Shown piece by piece: positions 14,785 to 30,252 of a stretch of 64,000 nt of DNA; the first letter of the stretch is position 1; every line of letters starts with the position of its first letter. The notes below the pieces were generated by a model that ran no database searches, had not been told where the DNA came from, and saw nothing but the letters and a program-made list of their open reading frames with translations. A program made the position numbers and the translations under genes. This stretch comes from a virus: the IMG/VR virus record IMGVR_UViG_3300005825_000016; one strand, 5' to 3'.

Positions 14785-14986
14785 GGTTCCGGTCGAGGTT
14801 ACCAAGCCTCTGCCGAAGACCCTGACAGACCCGATAGTTTACCCACCGGGGCTGTCAGAGAAGTTTACGGTTGATGATTTGATCGACCTGTCGTTCGCCC
14901 TGTACGACAAACTCGATCTGGCAAATACTGATCGGGCCAAGGCCGCTGAGCTTACGCAGCCACAGGCTTCTCCAGATACTCCGTAG
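14651..14986 (+). CDS. o-spanin (Rz1-like lipoprotein)
   Basis: Start moved to ATG 14651: signal peptide MMRLIR...LLLVASC with lipobox, Pro-rich mature part, overlapping the i-spanin 3' end in another frame. Confidence 0.7.
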   Translation: MMRLIRTRTAQTLLRLVWISSALLLVASCASDPEVRVVTETQTIEVPVEVTKPLPKTLTDPIVYPPGLSEKFTVDDLIDLSFALYDKLDLANTDRAKAAELTQPQASPDTP

Positions 14987-15131
14987 TAGTCGAGATGATC
15001 GAGTCACCGTGGACAGGGCACCTAATAAAGGTTGGCTGTTCCACGTGAAACGTTCGCACGCACGCGCAACCAAAAGCGATGTGAATCACCTGATCGTACA
15101 TGGGCGAAATTTTCTCAGTAACAGTGTTCAT
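14952..15131 (-). CDS. small Cys/His-containing hypothetical protein
   Basis: FGCACVRTFH...CPVHG possible Zn ribbon; last gene of the leftward block. Confidence 0.4.
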   Translation of the reverse strand: MNTVTEKISPMYDQVIHIAFGCACVRTFHVEQPTFIRCPVHGDSIISTTTEYLEKPVAA

Positions 15132-15179
15132 GTTCACACTTTATGTGAACCTTTTCACACTTGCAAGTGAAGTTAGGCC

Positions 15180-15365
15180 ATGATAGCCATCATGCTACTG
15201 ATCATTACCTACACATTCTTTGTCTCGAACCCCGCAATTGCTGCTGTGGCGCTCTATGGTGCGGCTGTAGCCGCGAAGTCATGGACGGCTGAGGATGAGG
15301 ATGCCGTCGCCATGTTTTTCTTCTACGGCGCTCTCATTGGCTGTGGGCTGGTTTGGTGGAGTTGA
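15180..15365 (+). CDS. small hydrophobic membrane protein (possible)
   Basis: 61 aa, almost entirely hydrophobic; divergent from 15131 across palindromic sites. Confidence 0.35.
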   Translation: MIAIMLLIITYTFFVSNPAIAAVALYGAAVAAKSWTAEDEDAVAMFFFYGALIGCGLVWWS

Positions 15366-15567
15366 ATAGGTCAGGCATTACCCTCTCCCGGTCCTGAGCT
15401 GCCTTGAGCTTGGCGATCAATACTTTTTGACCCTGTTCTTGCAAGAACCTATATAGCTCTTCCAGAGCGGCTTCCTGTTGCGTCAGGTCACGTCTTTCCC
15501 TGATCTGAAGAACGGCTCCCTGAATGATGTTATCGAGATGAATAAAGTCAGTCACTGTTTTCTCCAT
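15334..15567 (-). CDS. hypothetical protein
   Basis: 77 aa ORF in the tightly packed leftward operon. Confidence 0.5.
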   Translation of the reverse strand: MEKTVTDFIHLDNIIQGAVLQIRERRDLTQQEAALEELYRFLQEQGQKVLIAKLKAAQDRERVMPDLFNSTKPAHSQ

Positions 15568-15853
15568 TTTTACGAAGATTGCATCCTTCCAGTTTTTGAA
15601 CTGGGAACATAAAGTCTCTTCGTTCGCCGTCTTTGGTGAAGCGATGCAAGGTAATTACATTCGCACCCTTTGGAACTGTTGGCTTGATTGTTACGAACTC
15701 GCCCTTTACTGAACTGATAGTGCAGACCCAAACGTAATTGTCAGGGTCTGCTCTACCATGCTTGGCTAAATCAATTGTCTTGAATAGAGTTATCATAGCC
15801 CAGCAAGCAGCAAAGCCGAGTGACATTAGAATGATTGCAAGAAGTCTCAACAT
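15548..15853 (-). CDS. hypothetical membrane-anchored protein
   Basis: N-terminal TM; ATG 15853 overlaps the upstream stop. Confidence 0.5.
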   Translation of the reverse strand: MLRLLAIILMSLGFAACWAMITLFKTIDLAKHGRADPDNYVWVCTISSVKGEFVTIKPTVPKGANVITLHRFTKDGERRDFMFPVQKLEGCNLRKNGENSD

Positions 15854-16392
15854 GACACGTACAGTCTTTGGCAATTGTAGTTTGCGATTGGATTGCGGTG
15901 TGTTATCTCACCATAATCATGCTTGATATAGCTGTGCATCAGCTCAACGTCATCTGCTGCTACTTTCTTCATGCCAGAAACGAACCATGCATTTGATTCA
16001 TCAACGGCGTGCTGTTGAGCCAGCGGTAATCCCATCAGCTTCGCTTCAGCAACTTCACTGATAAACATCCCAGTGAAGAATCCTTTCAGCTTGTTGTACT
16101 TCACGTATTGATCAGCATTGCACCAGATGAAAATAGAATTGTCTTTCTCTGCCAGAACCGATGCACACGAATCGTCAATGATGTGGCCCCAACCAAACGG
16201 GAAGTTACCAATTGAAAGTAAACCGTTCGGTGTGCCATGGCCGAGCATCATTACCTGATCGTGTTCTTTGATCATGTCTTTTATTTCGTCTCGTGTTGCT
16301 CCACCAGTGACGACTGTCGCATTGAGGCCGTCATAGATGGGGCACAAGAAGTCTGTTGTTTTATCTTTTGGGTGAATCACTAATCTCTTCAT
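15847..16392 (-). CDS. putative clan CD (caspase/gingipain-like) cysteine protease
   Basis: MMLGHG ... FIWCNA His/Cys dyad pattern; ATGA overlap with the upstream gene. Confidence 0.4.
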   Translation of the reverse strand: MKRLVIHPKDKTTDFLCPIYDGLNATVVTGGATRDEIKDMIKEHDQVMMLGHGTPNGLLSIGNFPFGWGHIIDDSCASVLAEKDNSIFIWCNADQYVKYNKLKGFFTGMFISEVAEAKLMGLPLAQQHAVDESNAWFVSGMKKVAADDVELMHSYIKHDYGEITHRNPIANYNCQRLYVSC

Positions 16393-16820
16393 GATGGTGC
16401 GCTCCAATATCCATATACGCAGCGTTTGCCATCTCGATCTTCCTGAAAGGTATCGTGAACAACTCCGTCGATGACGGCGCAGTAATGTCTTGACACGCTC
16501 AATATGATCGTTCCTGTTGGCAGTTCTTCTGCTCTCATGTGAACCGTACAGCCGCTACCGATGTGCATTGTCGGTGTCCACTTCCAATTAAGGTGGTCCA
16601 TGATCTTTTTCATGGTTGATGAATAAACACCAGTGCGTGGATGAGACTTTGATTTCTTGCGCTTTCCGGTTCGCTCCTTTGCGCCAAACTGAAGTACTAG
16701 ATCATAGACTTCTTGGTATGGCATCCCTGTCGCAATGGCAATTGCACGAACAGCACAATCACCAGTGCGACCTTTGTATCCAGCGGCCTCTCGGCCACCA
16801 TCGTTAAACTTGAATTCCAT
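16389..16820 (-). CDS. putative papain-fold (C39-like) protein
   Basis: GDCAVRAIAIA ... HYCAVIDGVVHDT (Cys-His-Asp order); SD GGGAG. Confidence 0.45.
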   Translation of the reverse strand: MEFKFNDGGREAAGYKGRTGDCAVRAIAIATGMPYQEVYDLVLQFGAKERTGKRKKSKSHPRTGVYSSTMKKIMDHLNWKWTPTMHIGSGCTVHMRAEELPTGTIILSVSRHYCAVIDGVVHDTFQEDRDGKRCVYGYWSAPS

Positions 16821-16847
16821 GATGCTTCTCCCAAAGCTGAAAGAATC

Positions 16848-16886
16848 ATCATATCACACTCAGTGTGAAAAAGATAGCACTAAGTG
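16848..16886 (-). promoter_or_regulatory. extended -10 promoter with two CACTNAGTG operators
   Basis: TGn-TATGAT on the minus strand (16848-16853); operators at 16857-16865 and 16878-16886, 21 bp apart. Confidence 0.6.
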
Positions 16887-16890
16887 TTAA

Positions 16891-17316
16891 TTAAAAAGGA
16901 ATGTCATCATCGAAGTCTGGCTGATGCTGTGGTGGTGAAGATGACGGCTTTGCTTGACTTTGTGGAGCGTTACCATCACGAGGTGAGCCAAGGAACTGCA
17001 CGGTGTCGGCTCGTACCTTCGTGGTGTATCGCTCAACGCCTTCCTTGTCATTCCATTTGTCGGTCTGGAGCTTGCCTTCGACGTAGCATTGCTTACCTTT
17101 GGTCAGGTATTTGGCGCACGCTTCGGCGGCATTACCCCATACTTCAACGCGAACCCATTCGGTACGTTCCTTTGTTTCGCCTGTCTGCTTATCTTTCCAT
17201 GATTCACTTACTGCGACACTGAAGTTTGCAACCATGGCCCCTGATGGCAGGTAGCGTGTATCAGGGTCATTGCCGAGGTTACCAATGATGATTACTTTAT
17301 TGATTCCGCGTGACAT
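16891..17316 (-). CDS. ssb: single-stranded DNA-binding protein
   Basis: [18 protein letters not shown]...[10 protein letters not shown]...DFDDDIPF. Confidence 0.97.
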
Positions 17317-17588
17317 TATTTTACTCTCCGTAGGCTATCTTTTGTTCGCTCAACTGCGCATACAACTTTGTCGCAGTAGTCACATCTCATTACATCTCTC
17401 CCGCCAATAGCGGGAACGAATCGTCCTGATGGCGCGTGAAATCCACACGCGCACTTCAGCTTTCGATAGGTGATGCGAAAGCCTCTGCTGGATTTATTAA
17501 ACACACCGACGATTATCCATCCAAGTGCAAGTCCGAAAGCGATTGCGAGTGTTATTACTACTGGGTCTTTATTCATTCTGCACTCCAC
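17316..17588 (-). CDS. hypothetical membrane-anchored Zn-finger protein
   Basis: N-terminal TM, CACG...CDYC. Confidence 0.5.
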
Positions 17589-17760
17589 GTAATTTTACGA
17601 GTGGATGATCGCCAACTACCAGTAATGCAATCATCGCTAAGAAGGGGCTAATTAGAAATGCCAAAACCAACCAGCCGAAAATGCTGCGAGTACGTGAGTG
17701 CGCCATATAGCCAACAGCCCACATAAAAAACAGCCAGCAAAAGATGACATAGAATTCCAT
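17569..17760 (-). CDS. small two-TM membrane protein
   Basis: AHSRTRSIFGWLVLAFLISP pattern typical of small phage membrane proteins. Confidence 0.55.
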   Translation of the reverse strand: MEFYVIFCWLFFMWAVGYMAHSRTRSIFGWLVLAFLISPFLAMIALLVVGDHPLVKLRGVQNE

Positions 17761-17951
17761 TACTTGTGAACCTCTACGCACTTTCCAATGATGCCGTATT
17801 TGTAGTCAGTTGCTTTTGGGTTTGGCGCAGTGAAACTTTCCAATGCGATTTCGCATGACTTCATAGTTAGCCAGCCATCCCATTCAATGGGCTGAGTAAC
17901 TGCACCAGTTGAACTTATTACCCACCATACCAATACAATTTTCGTCATCAC
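17760..17951 (-). CDS. small secreted/hypothetical protein
   Basis: 63 aa, hydrophobic N-terminus, two Cys. Confidence 0.45.
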   Translation of the reverse strand: MMTKIVLVWWVISSTGAVTQPIEWDGWLTMKSCEIALESFTAPNPKATDYKYGIIGKCVEVHK

Positions 17952-18112
17952 TTTCTCCTGAATAGGTCTTTGATGTCAGTGTTCCACCATTTCTTTTTTC
18001 TTTTGCCGAGCCTGTAGTGCTCATACTCCCATGTGAGATACCACAGCCAGAAGTAGGTGCCTGCTCCGATTGCAAGCAGTCCAAGTGCTTCAGTACAAGT
18101 GATTGCACTCAT
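17948..18112 (-). CDS. small membrane-anchored protein (54 aa, not in ORF track)
   Basis: MSAITCTEALGLLAIGAGTYFWLWYLTWEY...KRKKKWW; start and stop overlap both neighbours. Confidence 0.55.
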   Translation of the reverse strand: MSAITCTEALGLLAIGAGTYFWLWYLTWEYEHYRLGKRKKKWWNTDIKDLFRRK

Positions 18113-19023
18113 GACCCTGTGTCCATGATTGCGTCTCTCATTTTCTTGTAGGTGATGCGAGCAACCTTTTGGTCTGCTTCATCGAGCACCTTTGCCATGT
18201 CAGCTGCTTTCAATAATTCTTCCATGGTGTCGCTTTGGTGCATTGCGCGTTCAACAGCAGCAAGCGTTATTTCTTCGGCTGGCTCCTGTTTAACGCCGCT
18301 CCCAAATACTTTGTGCGCTTCAACAAGATTGTCCGGCTCCTGAGCTGGCTTCGGCAGCTGATATTGAGTCACTGGTGGGGGTGTGTTTTCGTGATCAACC
18401 TGCTCTTCGACAACACCGAGGCCCTTCAACAGATCGGGATACGCATCACGTAAGCAGTATGCTCGTGCTCGCATCTGAAGCATCCGCTTTGGGTGTTTCT
18501 TCCAGTTGAACTTTGAATCAATGCCTGCCTGTACAGCGTCAGACCAAGAGTATGTTGCACTGATCGTCTGTGGATCGTCCCTGCGTTGCGTCTCGCAGGT
18601 TGCTGTTTTTCCATCCTCAGAGAGGGTTTCCTTGATCCACATGCACTTAGGAGAAGCACGCACAACTCCAATCAGTCCATCACCATACAGGCAGGGCTTT
18701 CCGTCGATCACAGCAATGGATTGGATGGCCTGAAACGGCTCCATACCAAGCTCTGATCCCATGTTAATTGCTACGAATACATCGTTCGGCCTGCCGCGAT
18801 ATGCGTCAGGTACGAGGCTTGATAGTGCTAACGTGTGCGCGACACGTTTTGCTAGTTCGTATTTGGCGAATGCTGGGTCAGAAGCAAGTGCCTGACCAGC
18901 TGCCGCCATGATAGTTTGTTCTGCTTCTTCCTCAGTGATTACGACGCTGGTGGCTTCGTTCACTTTTTCTGAGGCTGGTTTTTTGGCTGGCGCTTTCTTC
19001 TTGCTTGCTTTCTTGGTAACCAT
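18109..19023 (-). CDS. RecT-like ssDNA annealing protein
   Basis: VPDAYRGRPNDV...GSELGMEPFQAIQSIAVIDGKP...WKKHPKRML; adjacent to YqaJ exonuclease and SSB. Confidence 0.8.
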   Translation of the reverse strand: MVTKKASKKKAPAKKPASEKVNEATSVVITEEEAEQTIMAAAGQALASDPAFAKYELAKRVAHTLALSSLVPDAYRGRPNDVFVAINMGSELGMEPFQAIQSIAVIDGKPCLYGDGLIGVVRASPKCMWIKETLSEDGKTATCETQRRDDPQTISATYSWSDAVQAGIDSKFNWKKHPKRMLQMRARAYCLRDAYPDLLKGLGVVEEQVDHENTPPPVTQYQLPKPAQEPDNLVEAHKVFGSGVKQEPAEEITLAAVERAMHQSDTMEELLKAADMAKVLDEADQKVARITYKKMRDAIMDTGS

Positions 19024-19059
19024 TGTGCTTCTCCTAATAAACCCAGATATAAATAGTTT

Positions 19060-19998
19060 TCACGTCTCCAGTAAGATGGCTGTGCCAGCTTCTATGGCTC
19101 GCTCAGCATCTACTGGCAGTTTGGCTGTGTGTCGGGTAACAACGAATGAAGTCTCGGCAACTTCGAAAGCCTTCCGCGTTTGCTCTTTACGTGTGTAGGC
19201 TGACCCATCAGGTAAGACACCGACTGCGGCTTCGCCCATGAGCATAGCAATGCGGTTCTTGCAGCCGTCGATAATTCCTTGGTATAGCTTCGCTTGTTCT
19301 TGTGAGTCGTTGAGTACGTCATGATATTTCTGTGCGACCTCTGGCAGTATTACGACATTGCCGTTCGTGCCGGGATAAAGGTTTTTGATAAGGCGCGTCG
19401 TTGCTGCTGACTGCCACTGTGGTTCTGGTGCGACCTTCGACTGCACACGATCCCAGAATTCTTCTTCTGCTTGAATCAGATCATTGATGATTGACTCGAT
19501 TGGGTTGATTCGGTACTGGCGATAATCGCGGTTACCAATCAGGACAGCCAAGTCCCAGTGATCGTACCCAGTGACGGCGAGATAATGCTGGCACTGACAC
19601 ATGATGTATGCGGGGATTTCGCTTGACCCAGACTCACCCCACCCATCCGGGCGTGCGGCTGTCTTCGCTTCAAACCCAATCTTACGATCTTCACCAACTA
19701 CCTTGCGGTCAATGTTGGCAAGCATGAATGGATGCTCTTTCGAGCGAATGAGATTGTTGGACTTCTGAATTTTGTAACCAGTTTCTTCGGCGTACCGATT
19801 GGCTACTGGCTCTTCGAGAACGCTGCCCCAGTAACGAGATTCTTTGAGGAAGGTTTCATCTTCTGGTGGGGCTTCACCTATCTTGTCCAGATAGAGTTCG
19901 TAAGCCGTGGTATATGGGTTGATTCCCAATACGGTAGCCGCGTCTGAGCCACCTACACCTGATCGTCTTTCTTCGAGCTGCGCCTTCGTAAGGGACAT
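19060..19998 (-). CDS. YqaJ-like viral recombinase / lambda-exonuclease family
   Basis: RRSGVGGSDAATVLG...LANIDR...FEAKT...QCQHYLAV. Confidence 0.92.
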   Translation of the reverse strand: MSLTKAQLEERRSGVGGSDAATVLGINPYTTAYELYLDKIGEAPPEDETFLKESRYWGSVLEEPVANRYAEETGYKIQKSNNLIRSKEHPFMLANIDRKVVGEDRKIGFEAKTAARPDGWGESGSSEIPAYIMCQCQHYLAVTGYDHWDLAVLIGNRDYRQYRINPIESIINDLIQAEEEFWDRVQSKVAPEPQWQSAATTRLIKNLYPGTNGNVVILPEVAQKYHDVLNDSQEQAKLYQGIIDGCKNRIAMLMGEAAVGVLPDGSAYTRKEQTRKAFEVAETSFVVTRHTAKLPVDAERAIEAGTAILLET

Positions 19999-20038
19999 GC
20001 TGTTCTCCTGTTATGCAACACCGACACCCGGTGCAGGT

Positions 20039-20171
20039 AATACGCGATGATCGGAATCCAACCGACTAGGCCCTTATCAGGCGAAATGACTTCAGTGAGA
20101 GGTCAGTCTGCGGCTCGTAGTTCGCTAGGGGGTTCCCGGTTACTTTGCCTGCCGCACGTCAATCGCGTATT
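20039..20171 (-). ncRNA. candidate multi-helix structured RNA (leader of the recombination operon or sRNA)
   Basis: 10-bp closing stem AAUACGCGAU/AUCGCGUAUU enclosing UGCGGC/GCCGCA, GACU/AGUC and UGAC/GUCA stems plus small hairpins; starts at the predicted TSS. Confidence 0.55.
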
Positions 20172-20174
20172 TGT

Positions 20175-20211
20175 AGCTTACCACTATGTGTGAAAATGTC
20201 AACACTTAGTG
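20175..20211 (-). promoter_or_regulatory. sigma70 promoter with operator
   Basis: TTGACA-16 nt-TAAGCT with TGn; CACTTAGTG at 20203-20211 abutting the -35; degenerate copy 21 bp away. Confidence 0.75.
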
Positions 20212-20216
20212 TGCAC

Positions 20217-20244
20217 AAAAAAGGGCACCCGAAGGCACCCTTTT
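20217..20244 (-). terminator. Rho-independent terminator of the Y RNA-rsr transcript
   Basis: GGGUGCC-UUCG-GGUGCCC followed by U6, ~10 nt after the rsr stop. Confidence 0.85.
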
Positions 20245-20253
20245 CTGTAGACG

Positions 20254-21900
20254 TTATCTACTGAACTCCGCAATGATGGGGAGCACGTTTGCATCGAATC
20301 CAACCACGTCTAACATGCCGGAATCGTTGGGGTCAGCGATGCTGAACCCGCTGCTCGTCACACCAATAACCACGAGCTTAGCATTCGGGTTATGGGTCTG
20401 TCGGTATGACACTAATGCCTGAGCTGGCTTAATAGTGCCTGCCCACGTCTCGTTATCAGTGATGACGATGAACGTGTCTACCATGATGTTGTTGGCCGCA
20501 GCGTATAGCATCGGCACAGCACAGTCGGTAGAGCCGAAGTTACGGTCATACACTTTCTTCATCACGCTTTCCATCGAATCATTTGAGCCGATGTTGAGAT
20601 CAACAAATCCAGCGAGAGCGTTTTCCTGATCATGACGACCATATCCGTAGCCTCGTGGTCCTGCCGTGAAACCATGAATAAAATGAACTGGCTCAGTACG
20701 AGCGATGATCATTGCCATGGCACCAGCTGCCTCTGCTGCGCTGATATTCGAATTACTAATTGATGAACTCATCGAACCAGACACATCAACACCAATCATG
20801 AATGCCTTACCAGTCGGCTCCACATTCACGAATGCCTTCTCGAAACCCTTATCGAGTGCAGAGATTACACGCGGGTCAGTCTTCCAAGTCAGTGAGCTGC
20901 GATAGCCACCACCAGAGCTGTAATTCTTTAACGCCAAGAGATAGTGCATCGGGTGAATCTTTGAGCGCTTGATCTGCTCATCACTCACCAGTCGATCCAA
21001 TACCATCTTGGTCTCTACAGACATCGGCTTCAGCGTACCGTTCGCCGTCATCTTGCCCAGCTGTCGGATGGTTGCCATGAGTGGCATCTTCTTCAGCAGC
21101 TCGCGGTTGACAGCCTCGTTCTTCAGCCACTCAGTCGGCAGCATCTCCCATGACAGGCTGTACTGCTCAACATGCTTAGCCATGTCAGCGCCTTCGTTCC
21201 ACTCAAGCGTCTGTGCATCGCAGTAGCCCCTGTAGATGCGCGGCAGCTTGCCGGTCGCAACCTTTGCTTCCATCGTCTCAGGGCGGCAGGTCACATCGAA
21301 CATCGCACGCTTCTGCTCGACAATCGTTACCGGGTGAGATAGACGCATGATGTCGCGATGCGACCAACCATCACGCTGACGATACTTCAGCAGCTGATAG
21401 GCAAGATTGTCCGGCTTCTGGTTGTTATACCAGCGCTGGAAGGCACGCTTTGTAGCGCGGCCCCATCCACCAAATGCCTCAACGAACTTCGCAAACATGA
21501 ACAGGTGCGTACCCGTTCGTGCTACCTCTGGCATCACACCAGATGCCAGCTTGCGAGTCTGCTCATCGCCCAGCTTCAAAGCTGCGGCAAGAACAAACAA
21601 GGCAGCATCATTCTTGTGTGCGCGACCGTCCTGTGAAATCTCCACAACACGATTGACCACACGAAGACCATCAGACTTGATCAGTCCGATTACTGCGTTG
21701 GCATTGTCCTTGGTCAGGCTCGACTCGGTGACGTAGTAAGTGCCACCCTCGGAACCGAGAATAAGAAACCGATCCAGACGATCCCAGTCATCCAGCTTGT
21801 GAACGAATCCACCTGCTGAGTTCTTGACCTCATCGGTACGACCGGGGGTGCGCTCGCGCTGCGGTGAGACGCGAGTTGATACGTGACGTGAATAATCCAT
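20254..21900 (-). CDS. rsr: Ro60 RNA-binding protein (TROVE + vWA)
   Basis: VKNSAGGFV...LDRFLILGSEGGTYY...RTGTHLF...KYRQRDGWSHRD...GVDVSGSM...TDNETW...VVGFD; start at ATG 21900 with AGGAG 7 nt upstream. Confidence 0.97.
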   Translation of the reverse strand: MDYSRHVSTRVSPQRERTPGRTDEVKNSAGGFVHKLDDWDRLDRFLILGSEGGTYYVTESSLTKDNANAVIGLIKSDGLRVVNRVVEISQDGRAHKNDAALFVLAAALKLGDEQTRKLASGVMPEVARTGTHLFMFAKFVEAFGGWGRATKRAFQRWYNNQKPDNLAYQLLKYRQRDGWSHRDIMRLSHPVTIVEQKRAMFDVTCRPETMEAKVATGKLPRIYRGYCDAQTLEWNEGADMAKHVEQYSLSWEMLPTEWLKNEAVNRELLKKMPLMATIRQLGKMTANGTLKPMSVETKMVLDRLVSDEQIKRSKIHPMHYLLALKNYSSGGGYRSSLTWKTDPRVISALDKGFEKAFVNVEPTGKAFMIGVDVSGSMSSSISNSNISAAEAAGAMAMIIARTEPVHFIHGFTAGPRGYGYGRHDQENALAGFVDLNIGSNDSMESVMKKVYDRNFGSTDCAVPMLYAAANNIMVDTFIVITDNETWAGTIKPAQALVSYRQTHNPNAKLVVIGVTSSGFSIADPNDSGMLDVVGFDANVLPIIAEFSR

Positions 21901-21912
21901 CTTACTTCTCCT

Positions 21913-21937
21913 ATTCGGCTCGTCCATCACGAGCGTT
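21913..21937 (-). promoter_or_regulatory. circularly permuted Ro-binding hairpin adjacent to the rsr Shine-Dalgarno
   Basis: AAC-GCUCGU-GAUGG-ACGAGC-C-GAAU then AGGAG; same GAGC-C-G / (C/U)GCUC bulged helix as the three Y RNAs. Confidence 0.65.
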
Positions 21938-21943
21938 AAAAAA

Positions 21944-22075
21944 TGAGCATGTTATTGGCAGCGAAAGTTACGCGCTCTCCCAAGCTGAGCTACACCCACC
22001 ATTGTAGGGTGGGCGACTGGATTTGAACCAGTGACCTCGATCTCCCAAAGATGATAACGCTATCCATCCGGCTCA
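21944..22075 (-). ncRNA. yrlA: YrlA-type tRNA-like Y RNA
   Basis: Terminal Ro helix UGAGC-C-GGAU/ACAU-GCUCA; T arm ACUGG-UUCAAAU-CCAGU, loop-closed acceptor CGCCCACC/GGUGGGUG, D arm UA-GCUC-AGCUUGGGA-GAGC in permuted order; directly upstream of rsr. Confidence 0.9.
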
Positions 22076-22089
22076 AAATCAAAACTAAA

Positions 22090-22172
22090 TGCGAGCGTGT
22101 TGCGGAAGAGCGGTAGCCTTTCGGCATTTCACTGTTCAAGAGTAAGATAACGCTCTGATCCATCGGCTCGCA
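22090..22172 (-). ncRNA. Y RNA 2 (83 nt, non-tRNA module)
   Basis: UGCGAGC-C-GAU/ACAC-GCUCGCA Ro helix; AGAGCG/CGCUCU stem, UUAUC motif, GCC-GAAA-GGC hairpin. Confidence 0.8.
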
Positions 22173-22215
22173 AAACTGTCGAGACACCAATCCACTTAGT
22201 GCCTTAAAAATTTAG

Positions 22216-22280
22216 CCTGAGCATGTAAATTGCGGTGGGAACGATCATTAGAAGTGATAACCCATTGCATCCGGCTCAGG
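22216..22280 (-). ncRNA. Y RNA 1 (65 nt, minimal)
   Basis: CCUGAGC-C-GGAU/ACAU-GCUCAGG Ro helix; UGGG/CCCA stem then UUAUC; 5' end at the predicted TSS. Confidence 0.8.
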
Positions 22281-22287
22281 GATTGGC

Positions 22288-22331
22288 ATCATACGCCGGG
22301 GCTGGCTAAAGTCAACACTCAGTGGTAAAAT
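22288..22331. promoter_or_regulatory. divergent promoters sharing an operator (Y RNA-rsr leftward, HTH gene rightward)
   Basis: Minus strand TTGACT-16 nt-TATGAT (22315-22288); CACTCAGTG 22316-22324; plus strand TGn-TAAAAT 22326-22331. Confidence 0.7.
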
Positions 22332-22344
22332 TCTGCCCCTACCT

Positions 22345-22641
22345 GTGAAACCAAAAAGAAGCGAGAACGATGTGATGTCTACCCTTTTCGGCCCCAACGA
22401 GAGACCCGATGCAAACCCACCACACGAGAATGTAATCAGGAGGTTTCGAGAAGAGTTAAGGCTTGGGAGGCCGGAATTTGCTGATCTTCTTGATGTAAAA
22501 ATTGACACATTACGTGTATGGGAAACGGGGAAATCAAATCCACGCGGCCCTGTTGCGTTACGCATTGTTGAAACAGCGAATCGTAATAACTATCCACTGA
22601 CGGTCGAAGATATCTACCCGAAGAAGACGAAGAAAAAATAA
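22345..22641 (+). CDS. Cro/XRE-family HTH regulator
   Basis: RRFREELRLGRPEFADLLDVKIDTLRVWETGKSNP. Confidence 0.85.
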   Translation: MKPKRSENDVMSTLFGPNERPDANPPHENVIRRFREELRLGRPEFADLLDVKIDTLRVWETGKSNPRGPVALRIVETANRNNYPLTVEDIYPKKTKKK

Positions 22642-22654
22642 CCATAGAAACTCC

Positions 22655-22800
22655 ATGAATGTACCTTACAAAAAACAATTGTTGTTTTTGTTGTCAAACG
22701 TGCGTAATGTTGCCCATATAGAGGTAGAGGTAGAGGTAGAGGTAGATAAAACCACCTGACCAAGTACCAATAATCTCTATTAGTACCTACTAACTAAGGG
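22655..22800. other. candidate replication origin / displaced initiator-linker mini-ORF (22655-22759)
   Basis: AAAAACAA-TTG-TTGTTTTT inverted repeat, (AGAGGT)x4 tandem repeat, AT-rich tail; ORF MNVP...NVRNVAHIEVEVEVEVDKTT. Confidence 0.45.
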
Positions 22801-22806
22801 GCACCT

Positions 22807-23202
22807 ATGGGAACCAAGCTGTTCGGGAAAGTATTCCAGCAAATTTACGATTCGAGTCTTGCCACAAACTGGGAAGATATGGTGGTCTTTCAACAGATGA
22901 TTGTTTTGGCTGATGAGAGCGGTGTTGTTGATATGACCCACGATGCGATTTCGCGCCGCACCAACATGCCGCTCGCCCTAATTAAACGAGCAATCATCAA
23001 CTTGGAGAAACCAGATAAAAGTAGCCGCAGCCTTGAGCACGAAGGGAGGCGACTGGTCAGGATTGATGAGCACCGAGACTGGGGCTGGGTGCTGCCAACA
23101 TACCCAGAATACTCAAAGAGGATTACTGCTGAACAGAAGCGGCAATACAACCGTGAGCGCATGAGAGAAAAGCGTGCCGCTGATAAGGCAGACCAACAAT
23201 GA
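22807..23202 (+). CDS. phage replication initiator, N-terminal wHTH part only
   Basis: KVFQQIYDSSL...MIVLADESGVVDM...WGWVLPTYPEY...RQYNRERMREKR, then stop. Confidence 0.65.
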   Translation: MGTKLFGKVFQQIYDSSLATNWEDMVVFQQMIVLADESGVVDMTHDAISRRTNMPLALIKRAIINLEKPDKSSRSLEHEGRRLVRIDEHRDWGWVLPTYPEYSKRITAEQKRQYNRERMREKRAADKADQQ

Positions 23203-24743
23203 TCTCACTTTGGAACTGGCAGGCTGACATCCTTCAACAGGTGCGCGAGGCGATCCTTGCAGGTCACCGGAAGATTCTTGTCGTGGTTCCTACTGGTGGT
23301 GGGAAGACAGTGATCGCAGCTCAGATCGTAAAACTTGCTGCGGAGAAATTTAACCGTTCGATGTTTCTCGCCCATCGCCGCGAGCTTATCTACCAGTGTG
23401 CGAATAAGCTGATCAACTTCGGAGTGGACCACGGCATCCTCATGGCCGGTGAATATCCATACGGCGCAGCGGATTGTCAGGTCGCTTCCATTGATACGCT
23501 CCGTGCCAGATGTATCACAACGGAGAAGTTGCCGCTCCCCAATTCGGACATAGTTATCATTGATGAGGCTCACCGCTCTCTCGCACCGACCTATATCACG
23601 CTCATCAACCACTACGGTGAAAAGGTCGTCATAGGATTGACAGCGACACCCATACGAAGCGACGGCAAAGGTTTGGGTCACGTGTACGATTACATGGTGT
23701 GTGGTCCCAGTATCAGTTGGATGATCAAGCATGGTTATCTCGTGATGCCGCGAACGTTTGCGCCAACCATTCCAGACCTGACTGGCGTGCCAATAAAGAA
23801 CGGTGACTATGATCCTGTAGAACTCGAAGCGCGAATGAATAAGCGTTCATTGGTGGGCGATGTTGTTGAGCATTGGTATCGTCTTGCCCATGACAGGCCA
23901 ACTATAGTTTTTGCGAGCGGGGTTAAACATTCTGTGAACCTGCGCGATGAGTTCAGGAAGGCAGGGGTTACAGCTGCACACATAGATGGAAACACGCCGC
24001 TCGAAGAGCGCAAGCAAATCATATCCGATCTTCACGTAGGCAAGGTACAGGTTATTTGCAACTATGCGGTTCTGACTGAGGGTTTTGATGAGCCACCGCT
24101 TTCCGCTTGTGTCCTTGCTCGTGCTACGAAAAATCTCGGCCTCTATTTGCAGATGGGAGGTAGGACGCTCCGACCATCCGCAAACAAGAAAGACTCCTAC
24201 ATCATCGACCATAGCGGTAACGTTTACGAGCATGGCTTCATCCAAGATGAGCGACGTTGGGTGCTGGAAGAGGGACGTGCCCTGACAACAACAAGCGCCG
24301 AACGACAAAAAGATTTTGACGAAAAGAAGCCTATCACATGTATGGCGTGTGCCACAGTTTACACTGGACAGATTGTCTGCCCTCACTGTGGTCACACACC
24401 AGTGACCAAAGGGAAGCATGTTGAGTCTCGATCAGGTGACTTGATGGAAGTCCGATTGGAGAGCCGCAGGACAGCAAAGAAGAAGGTCTGGACATCAGAT
24501 GAGAAGCGACACTGGTACTCTATGCTGCTGGGTCATGCACAGCTGAAGGGAAAGTCAGAGGGCTGGGTGGCGCATACGTTCAAATCAAAGTTCAAGGTAT
24601 GGCCGAACTACTACAAAGACGCACCAGCATCGCCGCCGAACGGTGAGGTGCTGGCGTACATAAGACATAGGAACATAGCCTATGCGAAGAAAATGGAGAA
24701 GAAAAAAAATGAGAATGACAACCAAGCAAGCAGCGCGGGGTAA
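23199..24743 (+). CDS. SF2 DEAH helicase (RadD/YejH-like) with C-terminal Zn finger
   Basis: PTGGGKT, DEAH, GLTATP, QMGGRTLR, CMAC...CPHC. Confidence 0.92.
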   Translation: MISLWNWQADILQQVREAILAGHRKILVVVPTGGGKTVIAAQIVKLAAEKFNRSMFLAHRRELIYQCANKLINFGVDHGILMAGEYPYGAADCQVASIDTLRARCITTEKLPLPNSDIVIIDEAHRSLAPTYITLINHYGEKVVIGLTATPIRSDGKGLGHVYDYMVCGPSISWMIKHGYLVMPRTFAPTIPDLTGVPIKNGDYDPVELEARMNKRSLVGDVVEHWYRLAHDRPTIVFASGVKHSVNLRDEFRKAGVTAAHIDGNTPLEERKQIISDLHVGKVQVICNYAVLTEGFDEPPLSACVLARATKNLGLYLQMGGRTLRPSANKKDSYIIDHSGNVYEHGFIQDERRWVLEEGRALTTTSAERQKDFDEKKPITCMACATVYTGQIVCPHCGHTPVTKGKHVESRSGDLMEVRLESRRTAKKKVWTSDEKRHWYSMLLGHAQLKGKSEGWVAHTFKSKFKVWPNYYKDAPASPPNGEVLAYIRHRNIAYAKKMEKKKNENDNQASSAG

Positions 24744-25662
24744 GTGGGATGGCATCATCATCCACTTACTTGGCAAAGAAGCGGTTACGCGAAAGCATGG
24801 GCCGTGTCCTATATGTCAGGGCACAGACAGATACCGATACGACAACAAGCGGAACGATGGCGACTGGTTTTGCAATCACTGCGGAGTTGGTGACGGGTTC
24901 AGACTTCTGCAAGAAGCAATGGGCATCACTTTTGCGGAAGCGGCAAAGAAGGTGGATGAGATTGTAAACAACATCGAAGAGAAACCCTTCAAGCCAGACA
25001 TTGATATCGACAGACGCAGGCAAGCACTGAACGATACGTGGAGTGCGTCGAAGAATCCGCTTGTTGCTGCGCTTTATTTGGAAGGGCGCGGCATACCAAA
25101 AGAGATTATTGCTCAGGTAAATGATATTCGTGGCAACAAGAGCGCAGTTTATATTGGCGACGATAAATCACGCATGTTCAAGCCAGCGATGATGGCATTA
25201 ATTCGCAACGCAAAAGGTGAGCCGATATCAATTCATCGAACATACATTATGGGTTGCCTGAAAGAAAAAAAGATCATGCCGCCAATAGAGAATATCACTG
25301 GTGGTTGCGTGCGGTTGGGTGAGCCGCAAGATACATTGGTGCTGGCAGAGGGTATCGAGACGGCGCTCGCGGCATGGGCGATAACCGGGCATCCGGCGTG
25401 GGCGACGATATCTGCACACGGCATGGCCGAGTTCACCGCAATACCGAAGCATGTGAAGAAGGTTATCGTGTGCGCCGACAATGACGAATCATTCACTGGT
25501 CAGGCAGCTGCATTTACTTGCGCCAAGTACATGGCACAGAGGCTGAAGGTGGAGACCGTGGTTACCATGCCGAACATCATTGGCATGGACATGCTCGACG
25601 TGCTGCAAGACCTGAGTGATGTTGGTACATACGGAACGAAGCTGATGAGGTGGGCACCATGA
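24709..25662 (+). CDS. primase (P4-alpha-type Zn-binding domain + Toprim)
   Basis: CPICQGTDRYRY...WFCNHCG; EGIETAL; CADND; start at ATG 24709 after GGAG. Confidence 0.85.
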   Translation: MRMTTKQAARGKWDGIIIHLLGKEAVTRKHGPCPICQGTDRYRYDNKRNDGDWFCNHCGVGDGFRLLQEAMGITFAEAAKKVDEIVNNIEEKPFKPDIDIDRRRQALNDTWSASKNPLVAALYLEGRGIPKEIIAQVNDIRGNKSAVYIGDDKSRMFKPAMMALIRNAKGEPISIHRTYIMGCLKEKKIMPPIENITGGCVRLGEPQDTLVLAEGIETALAAWAITGHPAWATISAHGMAEFTAIPKHVKKVIVCADNDESFTGQAAAFTCAKYMAQRLKVETVVTMPNIIGMDMLDVLQDLSDVGTYGTKLMRWAP

Positions 25663-26345
25663 GCATCGCATGGACAGGTAAGGTAACCATGGTTCGGGCT
25701 GACTGGTCTGATGACGTGGGCAGCACCGTGACATTCAAGCTGCCCATGAACAATGACGCTCAGGACAAGCGTAATCCCTTTCACCAGTACACCAAGCGCC
25801 GGAAGGGTAGGGCTGGCACCCGGTTTATGATGGCCTGCCAGACCGATTCAGAGGCCGTCAGGCACGCGCTGTACGAAGATGAGGCGATGTTAGCGGGTTG
25901 GAATGATAGCCAGCAGAACGGGCACACGGTCAAGCTGTGGCTGTGTAACGATGGCATGGGTCACCCGTTTGAGGGCGTGGACCGTAAGCAGCAGCTATTG
26001 GTCTCCCTGATCGAGCTGGATGATGATCAAGCGCCGATTGACCAGAAGATGAGGGAGAAGGTCGAGCGGCAGGGAACGCGGCCCTCAGAGCGTCCCAGTT
26101 ACGGTGCCGTGATGTTGTGCAAGAACCCGGAGTTCCATAAGTGGATAGCACATGATGAGCGCGTGAAGCAGATCATGCGCGAGGGTGAGCATCCGGCAGA
26201 CTGGGAGAAGGTTGCGAAGGAGTGGATGTGTCGGGCGCTGGCAATGGAGTCTCGCTCTGAGTTGGATAAAAGCGAAGAGCTAAGGGTGCGTTACCACGAG
26301 ATAATTTATAAGCCATTCATGGCGACGCAGCAGCAACTATTTTAA
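25659..26345 (+). CDS. hypothetical protein
   Basis: ~228 aa, ATGA overlap with the primase stop. Confidence 0.6.
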   Translation: MSIAWTGKVTMVRADWSDDVGSTVTFKLPMNNDAQDKRNPFHQYTKRRKGRAGTRFMMACQTDSEAVRHALYEDEAMLAGWNDSQQNGHTVKLWLCNDGMGHPFEGVDRKQQLLVSLIELDDDQAPIDQKMREKVERQGTRPSERPSYGAVMLCKNPEFHKWIAHDERVKQIMREGEHPADWEKVAKEWMCRALAMESRSELDKSEELRVRYHEIIYKPFMATQQQLF

Positions 26346-26348
26346 GGG

Positions 26349-26825
26349 GTGATCGTGATGCCAAGGTACGAGACACGCGGTGATTTAGATAGGGAAGATT
26401 CCGTACTCAAAATTTTTTGTCTCAACATGAACTGCACCTACAAGAAGGTGAAAGAGCTTGATGACTATTCACCAGACGCATCGTTTTGGCGTAGCGGTGA
26501 GCGTGTTGCGATTGGTGAGGTAAAGGTTCGCACCTGCACAATGGATGACTTCACCACGTACATGATCAGCAAGGCGAAGGTCGATAGCTTGATTAACCGA
26601 TGGCATCCGCTGCCTATTTTCTTGATTGTGAAATGGAAGGACAGCGGCATTCATTGGGTTAAGCTGTCAGATGACACTACGTGTAACTGGCACGTAATGA
26701 ATGGTGGCAGAGTGGATCGAGGCGATAAGAAAGACATAGAGCCTTGCTACCACATTCCAATTGGCGAATTTATCAGGGTGAAATTTGATGGTGTCAGTGA
26801 GTCAGCACGAGAAGAATCTGCGTGA
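26349..26825 (+). CDS. PD-(D/E)XK nuclease-like protein
   Basis: YSPDASF...IGEVKVR...YMISKAK. Confidence 0.6.
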   Translation: MIVMPRYETRGDLDREDSVLKIFCLNMNCTYKKVKELDDYSPDASFWRSGERVAIGEVKVRTCTMDDFTTYMISKAKVDSLINRWHPLPIFLIVKWKDSGIHWVKLSDDTTCNWHVMNGGRVDRGDKKDIEPCYHIPIGEFIRVKFDGVSESAREESA

Positions 26826-27159
26826 GCTGCGATGCGTTGTTACGAACAACCCGCAGGTGACGCTTCATCACTGCCACGGAGCGTCCATGAAAGAGATGGG
26901 CTGGCACGTTGGCATGGGCCAGAAACAAAACCCGTTCCTTCAGATTCCACTGAAGGCTGACTATCACACTGGAGACATGGGTGTTGACAGGATCGGGGTG
27001 GAGACGTGGGAAGAAAGGTTTGGAAGACAGTGGGATTATCTGGTGGGGGTGAATGACCTTTTGCCATACAACATTTTTGCGGAGGCAGTGCGATGGGAAG
27101 AGGAAAACCGAAAGGGCCAGCTAAATACCACAACAAGAAGGTCCACTGGGGAGACATGA
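26785..27159 (+). CDS. Ref/DUF968-like HNH-type nuclease
   Basis: LRELRCVV...VTLHHCHG...QIPLKADYHTG...GVETWEERFG. Confidence 0.7.
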   Translation: MMVSVSQHEKNLRELRCVVTNNPQVTLHHCHGASMKEMGWHVGMGQKQNPFLQIPLKADYHTGDMGVDRIGVETWEERFGRQWDYLVGVNDLLPYNIFAEAVRWEEENRKGQLNTTTRRSTGET

Positions 27160-27452
27160 AGTTCGACTCCATCAGGGAGTTCGAGCGGTATCAGGAATTG
27201 GCGCTTCTTCAGAAGGCTGGGGTCATTAAAAACCTTGAGCATCAAGTAAGGATCAAACTGACATGCGGTGGTAATGCGGTTCTGTCAAAGAAGGGCAGGC
27301 AGTTCGCTTACGTGGTTGACTTCAGGTACTGGGATAATGAGCTGCGGCGGCAGCGCTTCGAAGATGTGAAGGGCTTCAATACGCCATTTGGTGATATTAA
27401 GATCGCCATGGTCGAAGCTGAATCTGGTATTGAGATAGAAATTGTGAGATAG
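27093..27452 (+). CDS. DUF1064 family putative endonuclease
   Basis: KYHNKKV...FDSIREFERYQEL...YVVDFRY...EDVKG. Confidence 0.85.
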   Translation: MGRGKPKGPAKYHNKKVHWGDMKFDSIREFERYQELALLQKAGVIKNLEHQVRIKLTCGGNAVLSKKGRQFAYVVDFRYWDNELRRQRFEDVKGFNTPFGDIKIAMVEAESGIEIEIVR

Positions 27453-27520
27453 TCGAGAGACCTGTTCATGGGTCAAACTTTGTCAGGTCCATTGTTTTTC
27501 TTCAAATGTTGGTATGAGTT

Positions 27521-27550
27521 GGGGTCACCTATCTGGTGACCCCTTTTTTT
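27521..27550 (+). terminator. Rho-independent terminator ending the replication operon
   Basis: GGGGUCACC-UAUCU-GGUGACCCC + U7. Confidence 0.85.
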
Positions 27551-27551
27551 A

Positions 27552-28097
27552 TTACCCAACGGATCGCAGCTTGGTGGCTGGTGTTGCGGCTCTCATGCAA
27601 TCTATGAATGCTTCCGTGCTGTTATCCCATCGTCCACTATCTTGTTTGCTTGCACCGTGAGCTTCAAGAGCACGCTTGACGATTTCGTACTGTTCAGCAT
27701 TGACGGTGAAATTGATTTGCCGTTTGTTTTTTAGCAGCGCTTCGATGGCGTTACCAACAGCCCGGACACCAACCTTGGTTTTGGCATTTGGCAGGTATTC
27801 AGAGACCCGTGTGAAGCTGAACTCATAGATGAGATTGAGTGCTTCTGTTTTGTTGTAGCCGAGTCGTTTGAAGTGACGGTAGGTGTGCAGGTACTTAAGT
27901 GCGGTTCCTGACGTGAAGGACATTTCTTCGGTTATCATATGTCCGAACGACTGGTAACCAAGTATCTCCCATAGTTTGCCATGTTCGATGGATGACATGA
28001 TCTGTCCCATCTCAAAGAAGGCTCCTGTCGTCTGCTCATCAAGTGAGATCAGGCGATCAAGTAGGTTCTCCGCGTATTGTCTTGGTGACATTGACAT
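27552..28097 (-). CDS. hypothetical protein
   Basis: 181 aa with SD AGGAG. Confidence 0.6.
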   Translation of the reverse strand: MSMSPRQYAENLLDRLISLDEQTTGAFFEMGQIMSSIEHGKLWEILGYQSFGHMITEEMSFTSGTALKYLHTYRHFKRLGYNKTEALNLIYEFSFTRVSEYLPNAKTKVGVRAVGNAIEALLKNKRQINFTVNAEQYEIVKRALEAHGASKQDSGRWDNSTEAFIDCMRAATPATKLRSVG

Positions 28098-28107
28098 TAT
28101 TTTCTCC

Positions 28108-28323
28108 TTACTCTGCTGGTATTGGTTTATAAAAATCTAACGCTGCTTGTATGTCAAAATTGAAATCAACGGCAAGTCTGCGAAAGGCTAGGTTGCAATC
28201 TTCGATGGTGCCTACGTTGTTCCACGCTTCGCGAGCCTCTTCGATTGTAATTGACACATCGCCTAATCCACTTTCTGATTGTTTAGTTATGTGTCCGTTC
28301 TTGGTATTGAAGTTGACGATCAT
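28108..28323 (-). CDS. hypothetical protein
   Basis: Start moved to ATG 28323 (GGAG upstream, downstream of the terminator). Confidence 0.5.
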   Translation of the reverse strand: MIVNFNTKNGHITKQSESGLGDVSITIEEAREAWNNVGTIEDCNLAFRRLAVDFNFDIQAALDFYKPIPAE

Positions 28324-28334
28324 TTTGTTTCTCC

Positions 28335-28376
28335 AAAAAAAGACCCGGACCAGCAGCACGTCTGATCCGGGTTTTT
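28335..28376 (-). terminator. terminator hairpin after the DUF932 gene
   Basis: ACCCGGA/UCCGGGU stem with U-tract on the minus strand. Confidence 0.65.
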
Positions 28377-28378
28377 AG

Positions 28379-29488
28379 TTACGCCGCTTTCGCGATGCGT
28401 TCCCACTGGCTGGTTGGGAGTTCGATGATGTTGCCGCCGACTCGCTCCAGCTCTACCTGACGCTCGTAAGACACGTCAGCACTTTGTGCATAGTGAGTGA
28501 TAGCCCACTGCATTCCGAACTGGCTCAGGTCGCCACCTTTGATCAGAGAGGCGAGAATACCTTCCTGCTCATTCTCGGTGAGGTTCGGCAGCTCCTTGAT
28601 AGCAAGGGACGGCTTTATGATCTCTGTGCCATTCATCTTAGCTTCGCACTCAGCGACCATTTTCTCGAACATGGTGCCATCGAGTCCGGCCTGTACCAAG
28701 TCAGCTACCTGCATCCAGAATGCGCGATCACTTGCAGTCTTGGTTGCATCGGTGAACAGCTCGAACAGAGCATCCTGATCAGACAGCTTCTTGCCAACGT
28801 GGTACTTGCGCATCGCGTTGCTGCCGACGATCAGCAGGTTTGAGCAATCACGCTCGTGGATACCCGGCTCTACAGCCAGAGAACCAGCACCGACTTCGGA
28901 GTTCGACAGGCAGATGCCCGGTGAGAATCTGTGAATCGGGTTGTGGCCACCGTCACCAAGGAATGTGCCAGCTTTCTTAACGGTGCGCTCAACGCCGGGA
29001 ATCTTGCCTTTGATGTACAGGCGCGTCTCGGTGATGTCGCAGGACGTTACTTCAGCGTTGAATTCCATCAGCTTCGGCAGCACGGCATTCGCGAAGTCGA
29101 AGTTATCGAGTGGACGGTACTTGTCTGACATGTAGGCACGAACCTGACCATCCAGTGTGCGAATCATGCGGTCAGCAGGCTCGCGCTCGAACAGTTGGTT
29201 TACGTTCCATGCAAGCATGTCCGGGTGATCTTCTGTGAGACGATCAACGAACTGTGCGGGGATTTTCAACTGGGTGCCGATTTGCCTGATGGCGTGCTTC
29301 TTGATGGGGAAGCTGTCTACGGTTCCGACCTTCATAGTCAGGTTGGTTGGTGAGTTGCTATCGGCTTCTACCGTCAGCTGCTTGGTGTCGGCAACGAAGT
29401 CGCGCTTAGCATTCTTCTGCCGGGTGAGTTCAGCTGCCATCTGTTCCAATGACATGCCTTTGATGGTGTTATTCGTAACTGATTTCAT
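28379..29488 (-). CDS. DUF932-like protein
   Basis: SLEQMAAELTRQKNAKRDFVADT...RAYMSDKYRPLDN...SNSEVGAGS...CSNL. Confidence 0.75.
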   Translation of the reverse strand: MKSVTNNTIKGMSLEQMAAELTRQKNAKRDFVADTKQLTVEADSNSPTNLTMKVGTVDSFPIKKHAIRQIGTQLKIPAQFVDRLTEDHPDMLAWNVNQLFEREPADRMIRTLDGQVRAYMSDKYRPLDNFDFANAVLPKLMEFNAEVTSCDITETRLYIKGKIPGVERTVKKAGTFLGDGGHNPIHRFSPGICLSNSEVGAGSLAVEPGIHERDCSNLLIVGSNAMRKYHVGKKLSDQDALFELFTDATKTASDRAFWMQVADLVQAGLDGTMFEKMVAECEAKMNGTEIIKPSLAIKELPNLTENEQEGILASLIKGGDLSQFGMQWAITHYAQSADVSYERQVELERVGGNIIELPTSQWERIAKAA

Positions 29489-29532
29489 GATCTTCTCCTA
29501 AGCAAGCGGCACAACGCCGCCATGTGTGATGC

Positions 29533-29576: not shown

Positions 29577-29598
29577 TAATATCAGTAGGTGTTATATC

Positions 29599-30237: not shown

Positions 30238-30252
30238 GATGCTTCTCCTTGA

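Follow-up and report, generated by a model that had tools for sequence, protein, structure and literature searches.

A conserved hairpin upstream of phage rsr genes that resembles a circularly permuted Y RNA Ro-binding site

The rsr locus

A conserved sense-strand RNA hairpin that copies the core of the Ro-binding site of Y RNAs lies 7-20 nucleotides (nt) upstream of the AUG of rsr, the gene for the Ro60 orthologue Rsr, in at least three deep phage lineages. It is described here mainly from one stretch of viral DNA of 64,000 nt, IMG/VR record IMGVR_UViG_3300005825_000016, which is referred to in full as the window. Ro60 and the Y RNAs are conserved from bacteria and phages to humans, Ro60 is a major human autoantigen, and the stability of the Y RNAs depends on it. 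Sequence comparison identifies the gene in the window as a true Ro60/Rsr orthologue: its product has the Pfam domains TROVE and vWA_Ro60 and matches X. laevis Ro60 (1YVP) with E = 3e-110 and D. radiodurans Rsr (2NVO) with E = 2e-95.

The features of the locus are collected in Table 1. The promoter listed there is the only good one on the minus strand upstream of rsr, and the same context is found in the related contig L004 (handles of this form denote the loci collected from relatives). Three Y RNAs follow, the third of which scored 29.8 bits against Rfam YrlA (E = 3e-4), below the gathering score; at gathering thresholds Rfam reported nothing at the Y RNA/rsr locus. A run of six U (21943-21938) lies directly 3' of Y RNA 3. 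The terminator-like hairpin beyond rsr, which a pattern scan did not list, marks the predicted end of the Y-Y-Y-rsr unit.

Table 1. Features of the Y RNA/rsr locus in the window
Feature	Position	Strand	Details
Sigma-70-type promoter	22288..22315	minus	TTGACT-16-TATGAT; 10/12 matches; would start transcripts close to where Y RNA 1 begins
Y RNA 1	22216..22280	minus	closes CCUGAGC-C-G (22280-22272) with U-GCUCAGG (22223-22216)
Y RNA 2	22091..22171	minus	closes GCGAGC-C-G (22171-22164) with C-GCUCGC (22097-22091)
Y RNA 3, YrlA-like, with tRNA-like module	21944..22075	minus	closes UGAGC-C-G (22075-22069) with GCUCA (21948-21944)
Permuted Ro-site hairpin (candidate)	21916..21935	minus	sequence, fold, invariance in 9 relatives, covariation
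Shine-Dalgarno sequence AGGAG	21908..21912	minus	7 nt before AUG; purine-rich sequence at the same place in relatives
rsr, Ro60 orthologue, 548 amino acids	20254..21900	minus	AUG 21900-21898, stop 20256-20254; Pfam and PDB relatives
Intrinsic-terminator-like hairpin	20217..20244	minus	GGGUGCC-UUCG-GGUGCCC and U run, just after the rsr stop; read from sequence

Sequence and fold of the leader hairpin

On the minus strand the rsr leader reads AAC (21937-21935), GCUCGU (21934-21929), GAUGG (21928-21924), ACGAGC (21923-21918), C (21917), G (21916), AAU (21915-21913), AGGAG (21912-21908), AAGUAAG (21907-21901) and AUG (21900-21898). GCUCGU and ACGAGC are the 5' and 3' strands of a stem closed by the loop GAUGG, and a CGAA motif at 21917-21914 follows directly. 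C21935 can pair with G21916 across C21917, which is left as a single bulged cytidine between the G-C closing pair and a G:C/U pair. Folded on its own, a 26-nt piece of the leader gave a hairpin of 6 base pairs (bp) at -9.4 kcal/mol (z = -3.75), and none of 200 shuffled sequences was equally stable. The initial annotation had proposed this layout upstream of the Shine-Dalgarno (SD) sequence, and it is borne out by the minus-strand reading and the fold, except that the helix had been said to end one base before the SD. The paired G is in fact separated from AGGAG by the 3 nt AAU, and stands 15 nt before the rsr AUG.

The SD itself is left unsequestered by RNA structure. When RNAalifold was run unguided on positions -65 to +9 of the leaders of the window's Rsr clade, it returned no helix besides the leader hairpin. 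Pairing of the 5' flank with the region from the hairpin to the SD and AUG was also tested by partition function: the native median was 4.1 against 5.3 for shuffled sequences, and none of the 24 leaders was significant. A second helix, UCCUU/AAGGA, is possible in the L041 lineage only. On the strength of the two negative tests, SD sequestration or a second stem was rejected as a general feature.

The start codon of rsr bears on how the hairpin is read, as a GUG at 21930, inside it, is in frame with the gene in the window, and a true start there would have undone the interpretation given in the initial annotation. Two observations rule this start out. The distance from the GUG to the AUG is 28-32 nt in relatives and the frame is not kept, and the N-terminus MDYSKH is conserved starting from AUG 21900. 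The loop bearing the GUG is itself replaced in L026, L027, L047 and L048. Four Rsr calls in the databases (P0003, P0004, P0012 and P0013; 559-562 amino acids) begin at the loop GUG (21928-21930) or at similar upstream codons. Judged by the comparative spacing, their N-terminal extensions are artefacts: an in-frame GUG within the hairpin loop misleads gene callers into extended Rsr models.

For the motif counts, a strict Ro-hairpin was defined as a stem of at least 5 bp with a loop of 3-9 nt, a 3' strand ending in GRNC, then C, then a G paired to the base 5' of the stem. In random sequence it is expected about 4e-5 times per nt per strand, ie about 8e-4 times per locus in a 20-nt positional window. 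Two further matches were found in the 128 kb of the window (both strands), both within long open reading frames, and the 19-mer of the leader occurs only once.

Two other Ro-like sequences in the window may be mentioned here. Inside rsr, at 20691-20703 (minus), the codons of a conserved A-R-T-E-P form GCUCG-UAC-UGAGC-C; in several relatives (L008, L021, L026 and L043) this is followed by G and then fits the strict definition. This hairpin in the coding sequence is probably a by-product of the conserved codons. The sequence ACGAGCCG lies at 20111-20118 (minus), in the structured leader of the downstream exonuclease/RecT operon. It was set aside as a chance occurrence, because no complementary partner strand was found near it and the heptamer CGAGCCG is present in the window at chance level (9 observed, 6.4 expected).

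Comparison with the Y RNA closing helix

Each of the three Y RNAs in the window has a 5' strand (N)GAGC followed by a bulged C and a G, paired with a 3' strand (U/C)GCUC(N). The leader hairpin consists of the two strands of this closing helix in reverse order, joined by a 5-nt loop. The initial annotation had called the site circularly permuted, and the term is accurate, because the closing helix of all three upstream Y RNAs is the same, with the strands in normal order.

About 85 Y modules were parsed from the same loci and compared pair by pair with the 11 distinct versions of the leader hairpin found in the window's Rsr clade. Counted from the bulge, the two groups use identical sets of pairs at all positions: U.G or C-G across the bulge; G-C at pair 1; C-G, U.G or U-A at pair 2; U-A, C-G or U.G at pair 3; and C-G or U.G at pair 4. 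Pairs beyond the fourth are variable in both. The 3' strand of the leader ends in GAGC in the window and in GGGC, GGAC or GAAC in relatives. The Y 3' strand is preceded by (U/C)AACA(U/C), and ACAU, AACAC or CAACAU is kept at that place in many leaders. The CGAA motif is present in the leaders of the window, L001, L022, L024 and L048, in the whole L041 clade and in all Loccivirinae (see below); CGCA, CGAC, CGAU or CGGU stands there in other relatives, whose Y RNAs show a similar variation, CG[GA][AU].

Chen et al. 2014 proposed that Rsr contacts a 5'-strand motif GNCGAAN0-1G (PMC4201824). CGAA was used to find and define the Ro60 site in the Yrl RNAs of Thermus phage phiLo, and a minimal stem-bulge-stem RNA with CGAA binds the Thermus phage Ro60 with a KD of ~17 nM (PMC12135203). 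The Ro modules of YrlA/YrlB, D. radiodurans Yrn1/Yrn2, phiLo Yrl1/Yrl2 and the vertebrate lower stem, where the counterpart motif is GGUCCGA (5'-strand GGUC), share with the leader hairpin the G-R-N-C strand, the single bulged C, the G paired to U or C, and CGAA; both are encoded beside rsr, and the pair composition of the hairpin is that of the locus's own Y RNAs (PMC4201824; PMC12135203; PMC4726728).

The resemblance is partial, and covers the lower stem, the bulge and one further pair. Unlike in the Y RNAs, a loop of 3-8 nt closes the side that is there the open 5'/3' terminus, and there is no second stem and no effector or tRNA-like module. Nor does the helix bring together the two termini of a small stable RNA: its strands are reversed, closed by a loop and contained within the rsr mRNA leader. 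By its sequence and predicted fold, the leader element is a variant Y-RNA Ro site, circularly permuted and truncated.

Conservation within the Rsr clade

Viral, metagenome, genome and assembly collections were searched at the protein level. For the window's Rsr clade this yielded 24 distinct contigs that include the leader, with Rsr identities of 58-80%. The hairpin is present in 22 of them. Its conservation in phage rsr leaders had been put forward in the initial annotation as a check, and it holds both here and in other phage lineages. Nine relatives (~75% identity) have an invariant 19 nt, GCUCGUGAUGGACGAGCCG, while both flanks vary. More distant members have different stems, ie GCUCGC/GCGAGC (L027, L048), GUCCGC/GUGGGC (L026), GCUCUC/GAGGGC (L021), GCCUGC/GCGGGC (L036), GCUCACG/CGUGGGC (L046) and GCCCGC/GCGGGC (L047), with loops of 3-8 nt that are unrelated in sequence. 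What does not change is the G-C pair beside the bulge, the bulged C and the next G. The bulged C is found in all 11 distinct hairpins, and also in L041 and the Streptomyces lineages, and in 10 of the 11 the partner of the G is U or C.

RNAalifold (-65 to +9) found compensatory double changes at four of the six hairpin pairs. In the alignment 99.1% of cells pair; the observed values were not reached in any of 500 column shuffles, and controls slid along the alignment gave 24-51%. On the opposite strand the G.U pairs of L021, L026, L036, L046 and Bmoc would become A.C mismatches, and for this reason the hairpin is regarded as a sense-strand RNA and not as a DNA operator. From the paired G to the AUG is 12-20 nt in the clade, mostly 15-17 nt, with the SD 0-6 nt after the G. 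The conserved part is thus the hairpin with its bulge, at a short fixed distance from SD and AUG, and not the loop or an exact sequence.

Other phage lineages

Outside the clade, the 194-kb viral contig L041, whose Rsr is 43% identical to that of the window, has UU-GUCCGA-GGGA-UCGGAC-C-G-AAAAGGAAG before the AUG, and the hairpin is present in all four contigs of the L041 clade. L051 keeps the L041 form. In L052 the stem is GUUCCGA/UCGGAAC, with a compensatory inserted pair, and the Y RNA of that contig is also of the GAAC type. L053 has tandem hairpins at 685-733, GUCCGA-CUUG-UCGGAC-C-G and then AACUU-GUCCAG-GCAA-CUGGAC-C-G-AAAGGAG. Each is preceded by AACUU, as in the Y 3' strand of the L041 clade, and the second runs straight into AAAGGAG; the pair may be a doubled operator.

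Nine cultured Streptomyces phages were sampled and all have the hairpin. In the seven Loccivirinae (Karp, Patelgo, Moab, Gilson, Forrest, Kenrey and Faust) it reads AAUAU-GCCCA-(AUU/AAA/GAA)-UGGGC-C-G-AAAGGA. The YrlA-like RNA of Karp closes AUGGGU-C-G with AACAACAU-AUCCAU and its leader has UGGGC-C-G, so that the leader copies the stem flavour of its lineage. The two Boydwoodruffvirinae (Bmoc and Coruscant) have (U/C)-GCCUU-AGAA-AGGGC-C-G at 7-9 nt before the AUG, and here the hairpin extends over the stop codon of the preceding protein gene, inside an operon. No Y RNA is adjacent to the hairpin in any of the nine, and the distance from the G to the AUG is 7-18 nt. The absence of an adjacent Y RNA, together with the overlap of the stop codon in Bmoc and Coruscant, indicates that the element travels with the rsr ribosome-binding site (RBS) and not with Y-RNA ends. 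A weak 4-bp version is present in the Sinorhizobium jumbo phage Phosso. On the Rsr tree the three clades that have the hairpin are supported, losses are nested, and no fewer than four events of gain or loss are required.

Interpretation

What stands of the initial annotation is its structural half, now backed by the covariation, the likeness to the Ro site and the fixed position in at least three lineages. Its functional half, in which Rsr would bind the leader, block the ribosome and be titrated by the Y RNAs, agrees with all the data. It had also called the hairpin a switch. That word is too strong, since the analysis supports no alternative RNA fold that takes in the SD.

In our estimation there is an even chance that the hairpin is an autogenous translational operator which works by Y-RNA mimicry. 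Binding of Rsr in the manner of Y RNAs is suggested by the conservation of the hairpin on the sense strand, its resemblance to the Y helix and its constant position just ahead of the rsr SD. Rsr free of Y RNA would bind the leader hairpin with the surface that it uses for Y RNAs. The 60-kDa Rsr ring, bound at about -16 to -35, would overlap the landing zone of the 30S subunit and block initiation, and, with the SD left unpaired, the block would be steric. The second stem is present in the full Y RNAs, which are probably better ligands and would out-compete the leader, and Rsr would then be made in proportion to unoccupied Y RNA. The wider proposal, that phage Ro60 sets its own level through a permuted mini Y RNA at the rsr RBS, with the Y RNAs relieving the block, and that at least three deep phage lineages have either kept this arrangement or evolved it anew, falls a little short of even.

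Autogenous operators that mimic the main RNA ligand of a protein are known from E. coli thrS, where the anticodon arm of tRNA-Thr is mimicked, from the ribosomal proteins L1, S8, S15 and L20, from phage T4 gp32, gp43 and RegA, and from the MS2 coat protein. As in those cases, the rsr hairpin is a small structured copy of a cognate RNA site, situated in the translation-initiation region of the protein's own mRNA, and it resembles (in part) the primary RNA ligand of Rsr. If the proposed operator is real, the abundant primary ligand, here the Y RNAs, would also titrate the protein, and synthesis would track unoccupied ligand. The rsr leader departs from the classical operators in that SD and AUG lie outside the structure and in that binding and repression are predictions from sequence.

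Several observations weigh against regulation of this kind. The hairpin is missing in two clade members, L043 and L045; the former looks like a clean deletion, leaving ...UUAA-CCG-UAACAGGGG. It is also absent from twelve other phage rsr loci (Cashline, GMA2, Mareelih, Sparky, Bxz1, FuzzBuster, Pumpernickel, Magritte, L028, L039, L040 and L049), at several of which a normal Y RNA abuts the SD instead. Together these losses and absences make the hairpin dispensable. Much of the invariance within the clade may come from shared descent. Fine co-variation with the adjacent Y stem is lacking, eg L022 and L029 have a GGAC-type Y RNA 3 and a GAGC-type leader. That Ro60 binds a helix closed by a loop on its terminal side is a prediction. 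The upper stem of the Y RNA (GAUGG with CCAAU) is missing from the leader, and with it any true bulge on the opposite strand. Vertebrate Ro60 requires the bulged C and, between two stems, a bulge on the opposite strand as well; removal of the latter abolishes binding (PMC4726728).

An alternative is that the hairpin is a generic one that Rsr does not recognise, serving as a 5'-end stabiliser, as a signal for processing of the last Y RNA, or as a site for some other protein. Stable 5' hairpins are common mRNA stabilisers, the hairpin of the window comes directly after the U-run of Y RNA 3, and its loop is free to vary. Left unexplained are the invariant parts, which are the exact signature of a Ro site (G-C beside the bulged C, G paired to U or C, GRNC), and the way in which the stem flavour tracks the Y RNAs of each lineage. 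A 6-bp stem is too short for RNase III. In addition, the hairpin can be neither a 5' end nor a Y-processing site where it is intra-operon (Bmoc, Coruscant) or has no Y RNA beside it (the Streptomyces phages). We consider a generic hairpin unlikely.

Somewhat less likely again is an outcome other than repression after Rsr has bound, such as loading of newly made Rsr in cis, protection of the mRNA, or recruitment of PNPase in a RYPER-like complex that degrades the rsr mRNA. The evidence from mimicry and conservation fits such outcomes equally, and the SD is left unpaired. Ro60/Y RNA complexes are moreover known to engage PNPase (PMC4201824, PMC12135203). The spacing speaks for the operator: in all lineages the hairpin is held within 7-20 nt of the start, with the G only 7-9 nt from the AUG in Bmoc and Coruscant, which occlusion of the ribosome requires and a decay tag does not.

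That the hairpin is a non-functional remnant of a junction between tandem Y RNAs is very improbable. Junction hairpins of this sort do exist in relatives (L002, L008), but the leader hairpin has been kept with compensatory changes across Rsr divergence to ~40% identity, is invariant where its flanks drift, has a fixed position relative to the SD, and is present without nearby Y RNAs. Its occurrence at the RBS in Streptomyces phages, without an adjacent Y RNA or within an operon, weakens this explanation as it does those of a stabiliser and a Y-processing signal. Least credible of all are a palindromic DNA operator for a transcription factor, which would account for the perfect inverted repeat GCTCGT-N5-ACGAGC in the window and is rejected because the palindrome occurs there once, the bulged C and G make it asymmetric and the G.U pairs point to RNA, and coding sequence of an Rsr extended from GUG 21930, which several database calls favour and the spacing, the frame and the replaced loops contradict.

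Literature searches on Rsr/Ro60 autoregulation, binding to its own mRNA and phage Ro60 found no description of a hairpin in the rsr leader or of an autogenous operator of this type for Ro60/Rsr, in keeping with the statement in the initial annotation that none was known. A 2025 paper on phage Ro60 does not mention one (PMC12135203), and nothing was found in the literature on the matching of Ro60 synthesis to Y RNA. If the operator is real, a protein of the Ro60 family would for the first time have a described cis-regulatory (mRNA) target, and an mRNA may then be a specific target of Ro60. A Ro-site mimic at the rsr RBS gives a concrete model of feedback that is cheap to test. As a minimal natural candidate ligand, with 6 bp, a bulged C and one more pair, and closed on the "wrong" side, it would also sharpen what is understood of recognition by Ro60. 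No near-identical cultured phage is on record for the window, which comes from an uncultured estuarine phage, but the element is carried by cultured SEA-PHAGES Streptomyces phages (Karp, Gilson, Faust, Bmoc and Coruscant), and experiments are therefore independent of it.

Related elements and other observations

A larger "permuted Y RNA" is found at L002:2519-2580, L005:2507-2570, L001 ~2330-2350, L009, L013/L022, L024 ~940-960, L043 ~620-645, L049 ~1040-1055 and L039 ~815-860. The window itself has no such promoter-proximal element. In L002 it comes directly after a promoter, TTGACT-N17-TACAAT. These elements are like the leader of the window in their reversed strand order and in the loop-closed GCUCG/CGAGC-C-G hairpin. 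Unlike it, they have a GUUAUC motif and, beyond an internal loop of 7 nt and 4 nt (GCAACAU / CGAA or CGAG), a full second stem, GGUUGUUC/GAAUAGACC. They are thus complete stem-bulge-stem structures, made as separate transcripts from their own promoter, with a terminator following in L002, L005 and L009.

A permuted hairpin with the same bulge also forms where tandem Y RNAs adjoin (a 3' strand, a U-rich spacer of 7-9 nt and the 5' strand that comes next), at L002:2740-2775, where the sequence is GUUCGUG-9 nt-UGUGAGC-C-G, and at L008:2575-2605, where it is GUUCGCA-7 nt-UGUGGAC-C-G. The leader hairpin may plausibly have evolved from such a junction. Four to six or more tandem Y modules are found 600-1000 nt upstream of rsr in L001, L002, L004, L005, L008, L046, L047 and L048, compared with three in the window, and stems of the GAGC, GGAC, GGGC and GAAC types are mixed within one locus among relatives. 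L040 and L039 differ over the 120 nt that precede rsr: L040 carries a complete Y RNA in normal orientation that abuts the SD, and its close relative L039 has only a mini hairpin, AUGGGC-CAAUUA-GCCCAU, which looks as if the interior of the Y RNA had been deleted.

The locus is contained at 100% identity in four estuary metatranscriptome libraries, with contigs that bridge Y RNA 3, the hairpin and rsr. Coverage is even over 20 kb (window 12001-32000) at a depth of 2-5, and RNA is for that reason indistinguishable from DNA carry-over. Going by their sequence identity, the matches place the phage of the window in estuarine samples. One related locus, L009, is a 7-kb contig with a phage-type Y-RNA/rsr locus from a Desulfuromonadales metagenome-assembled genome (MAG; contig JAQYVZ010000060.1). 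The MAG is the single carrier of Rsr among 401 genomes sampled from its phylum, and the contig is probably a phage or prophage fragment binned with it, at best a weak hint of the host.

The rsr leaders of Karp (L060:580-640) and, at the same place, of Patelgo, Moab, Gilson, Forrest, Kenrey and Faust contain a further hairpin ~25 nt upstream of the Ro-site hairpin. Its strands, AGCCGG and CCGGCA, are conserved around a variable loop, and a role as terminator or attenuator for the gene upstream is possible.

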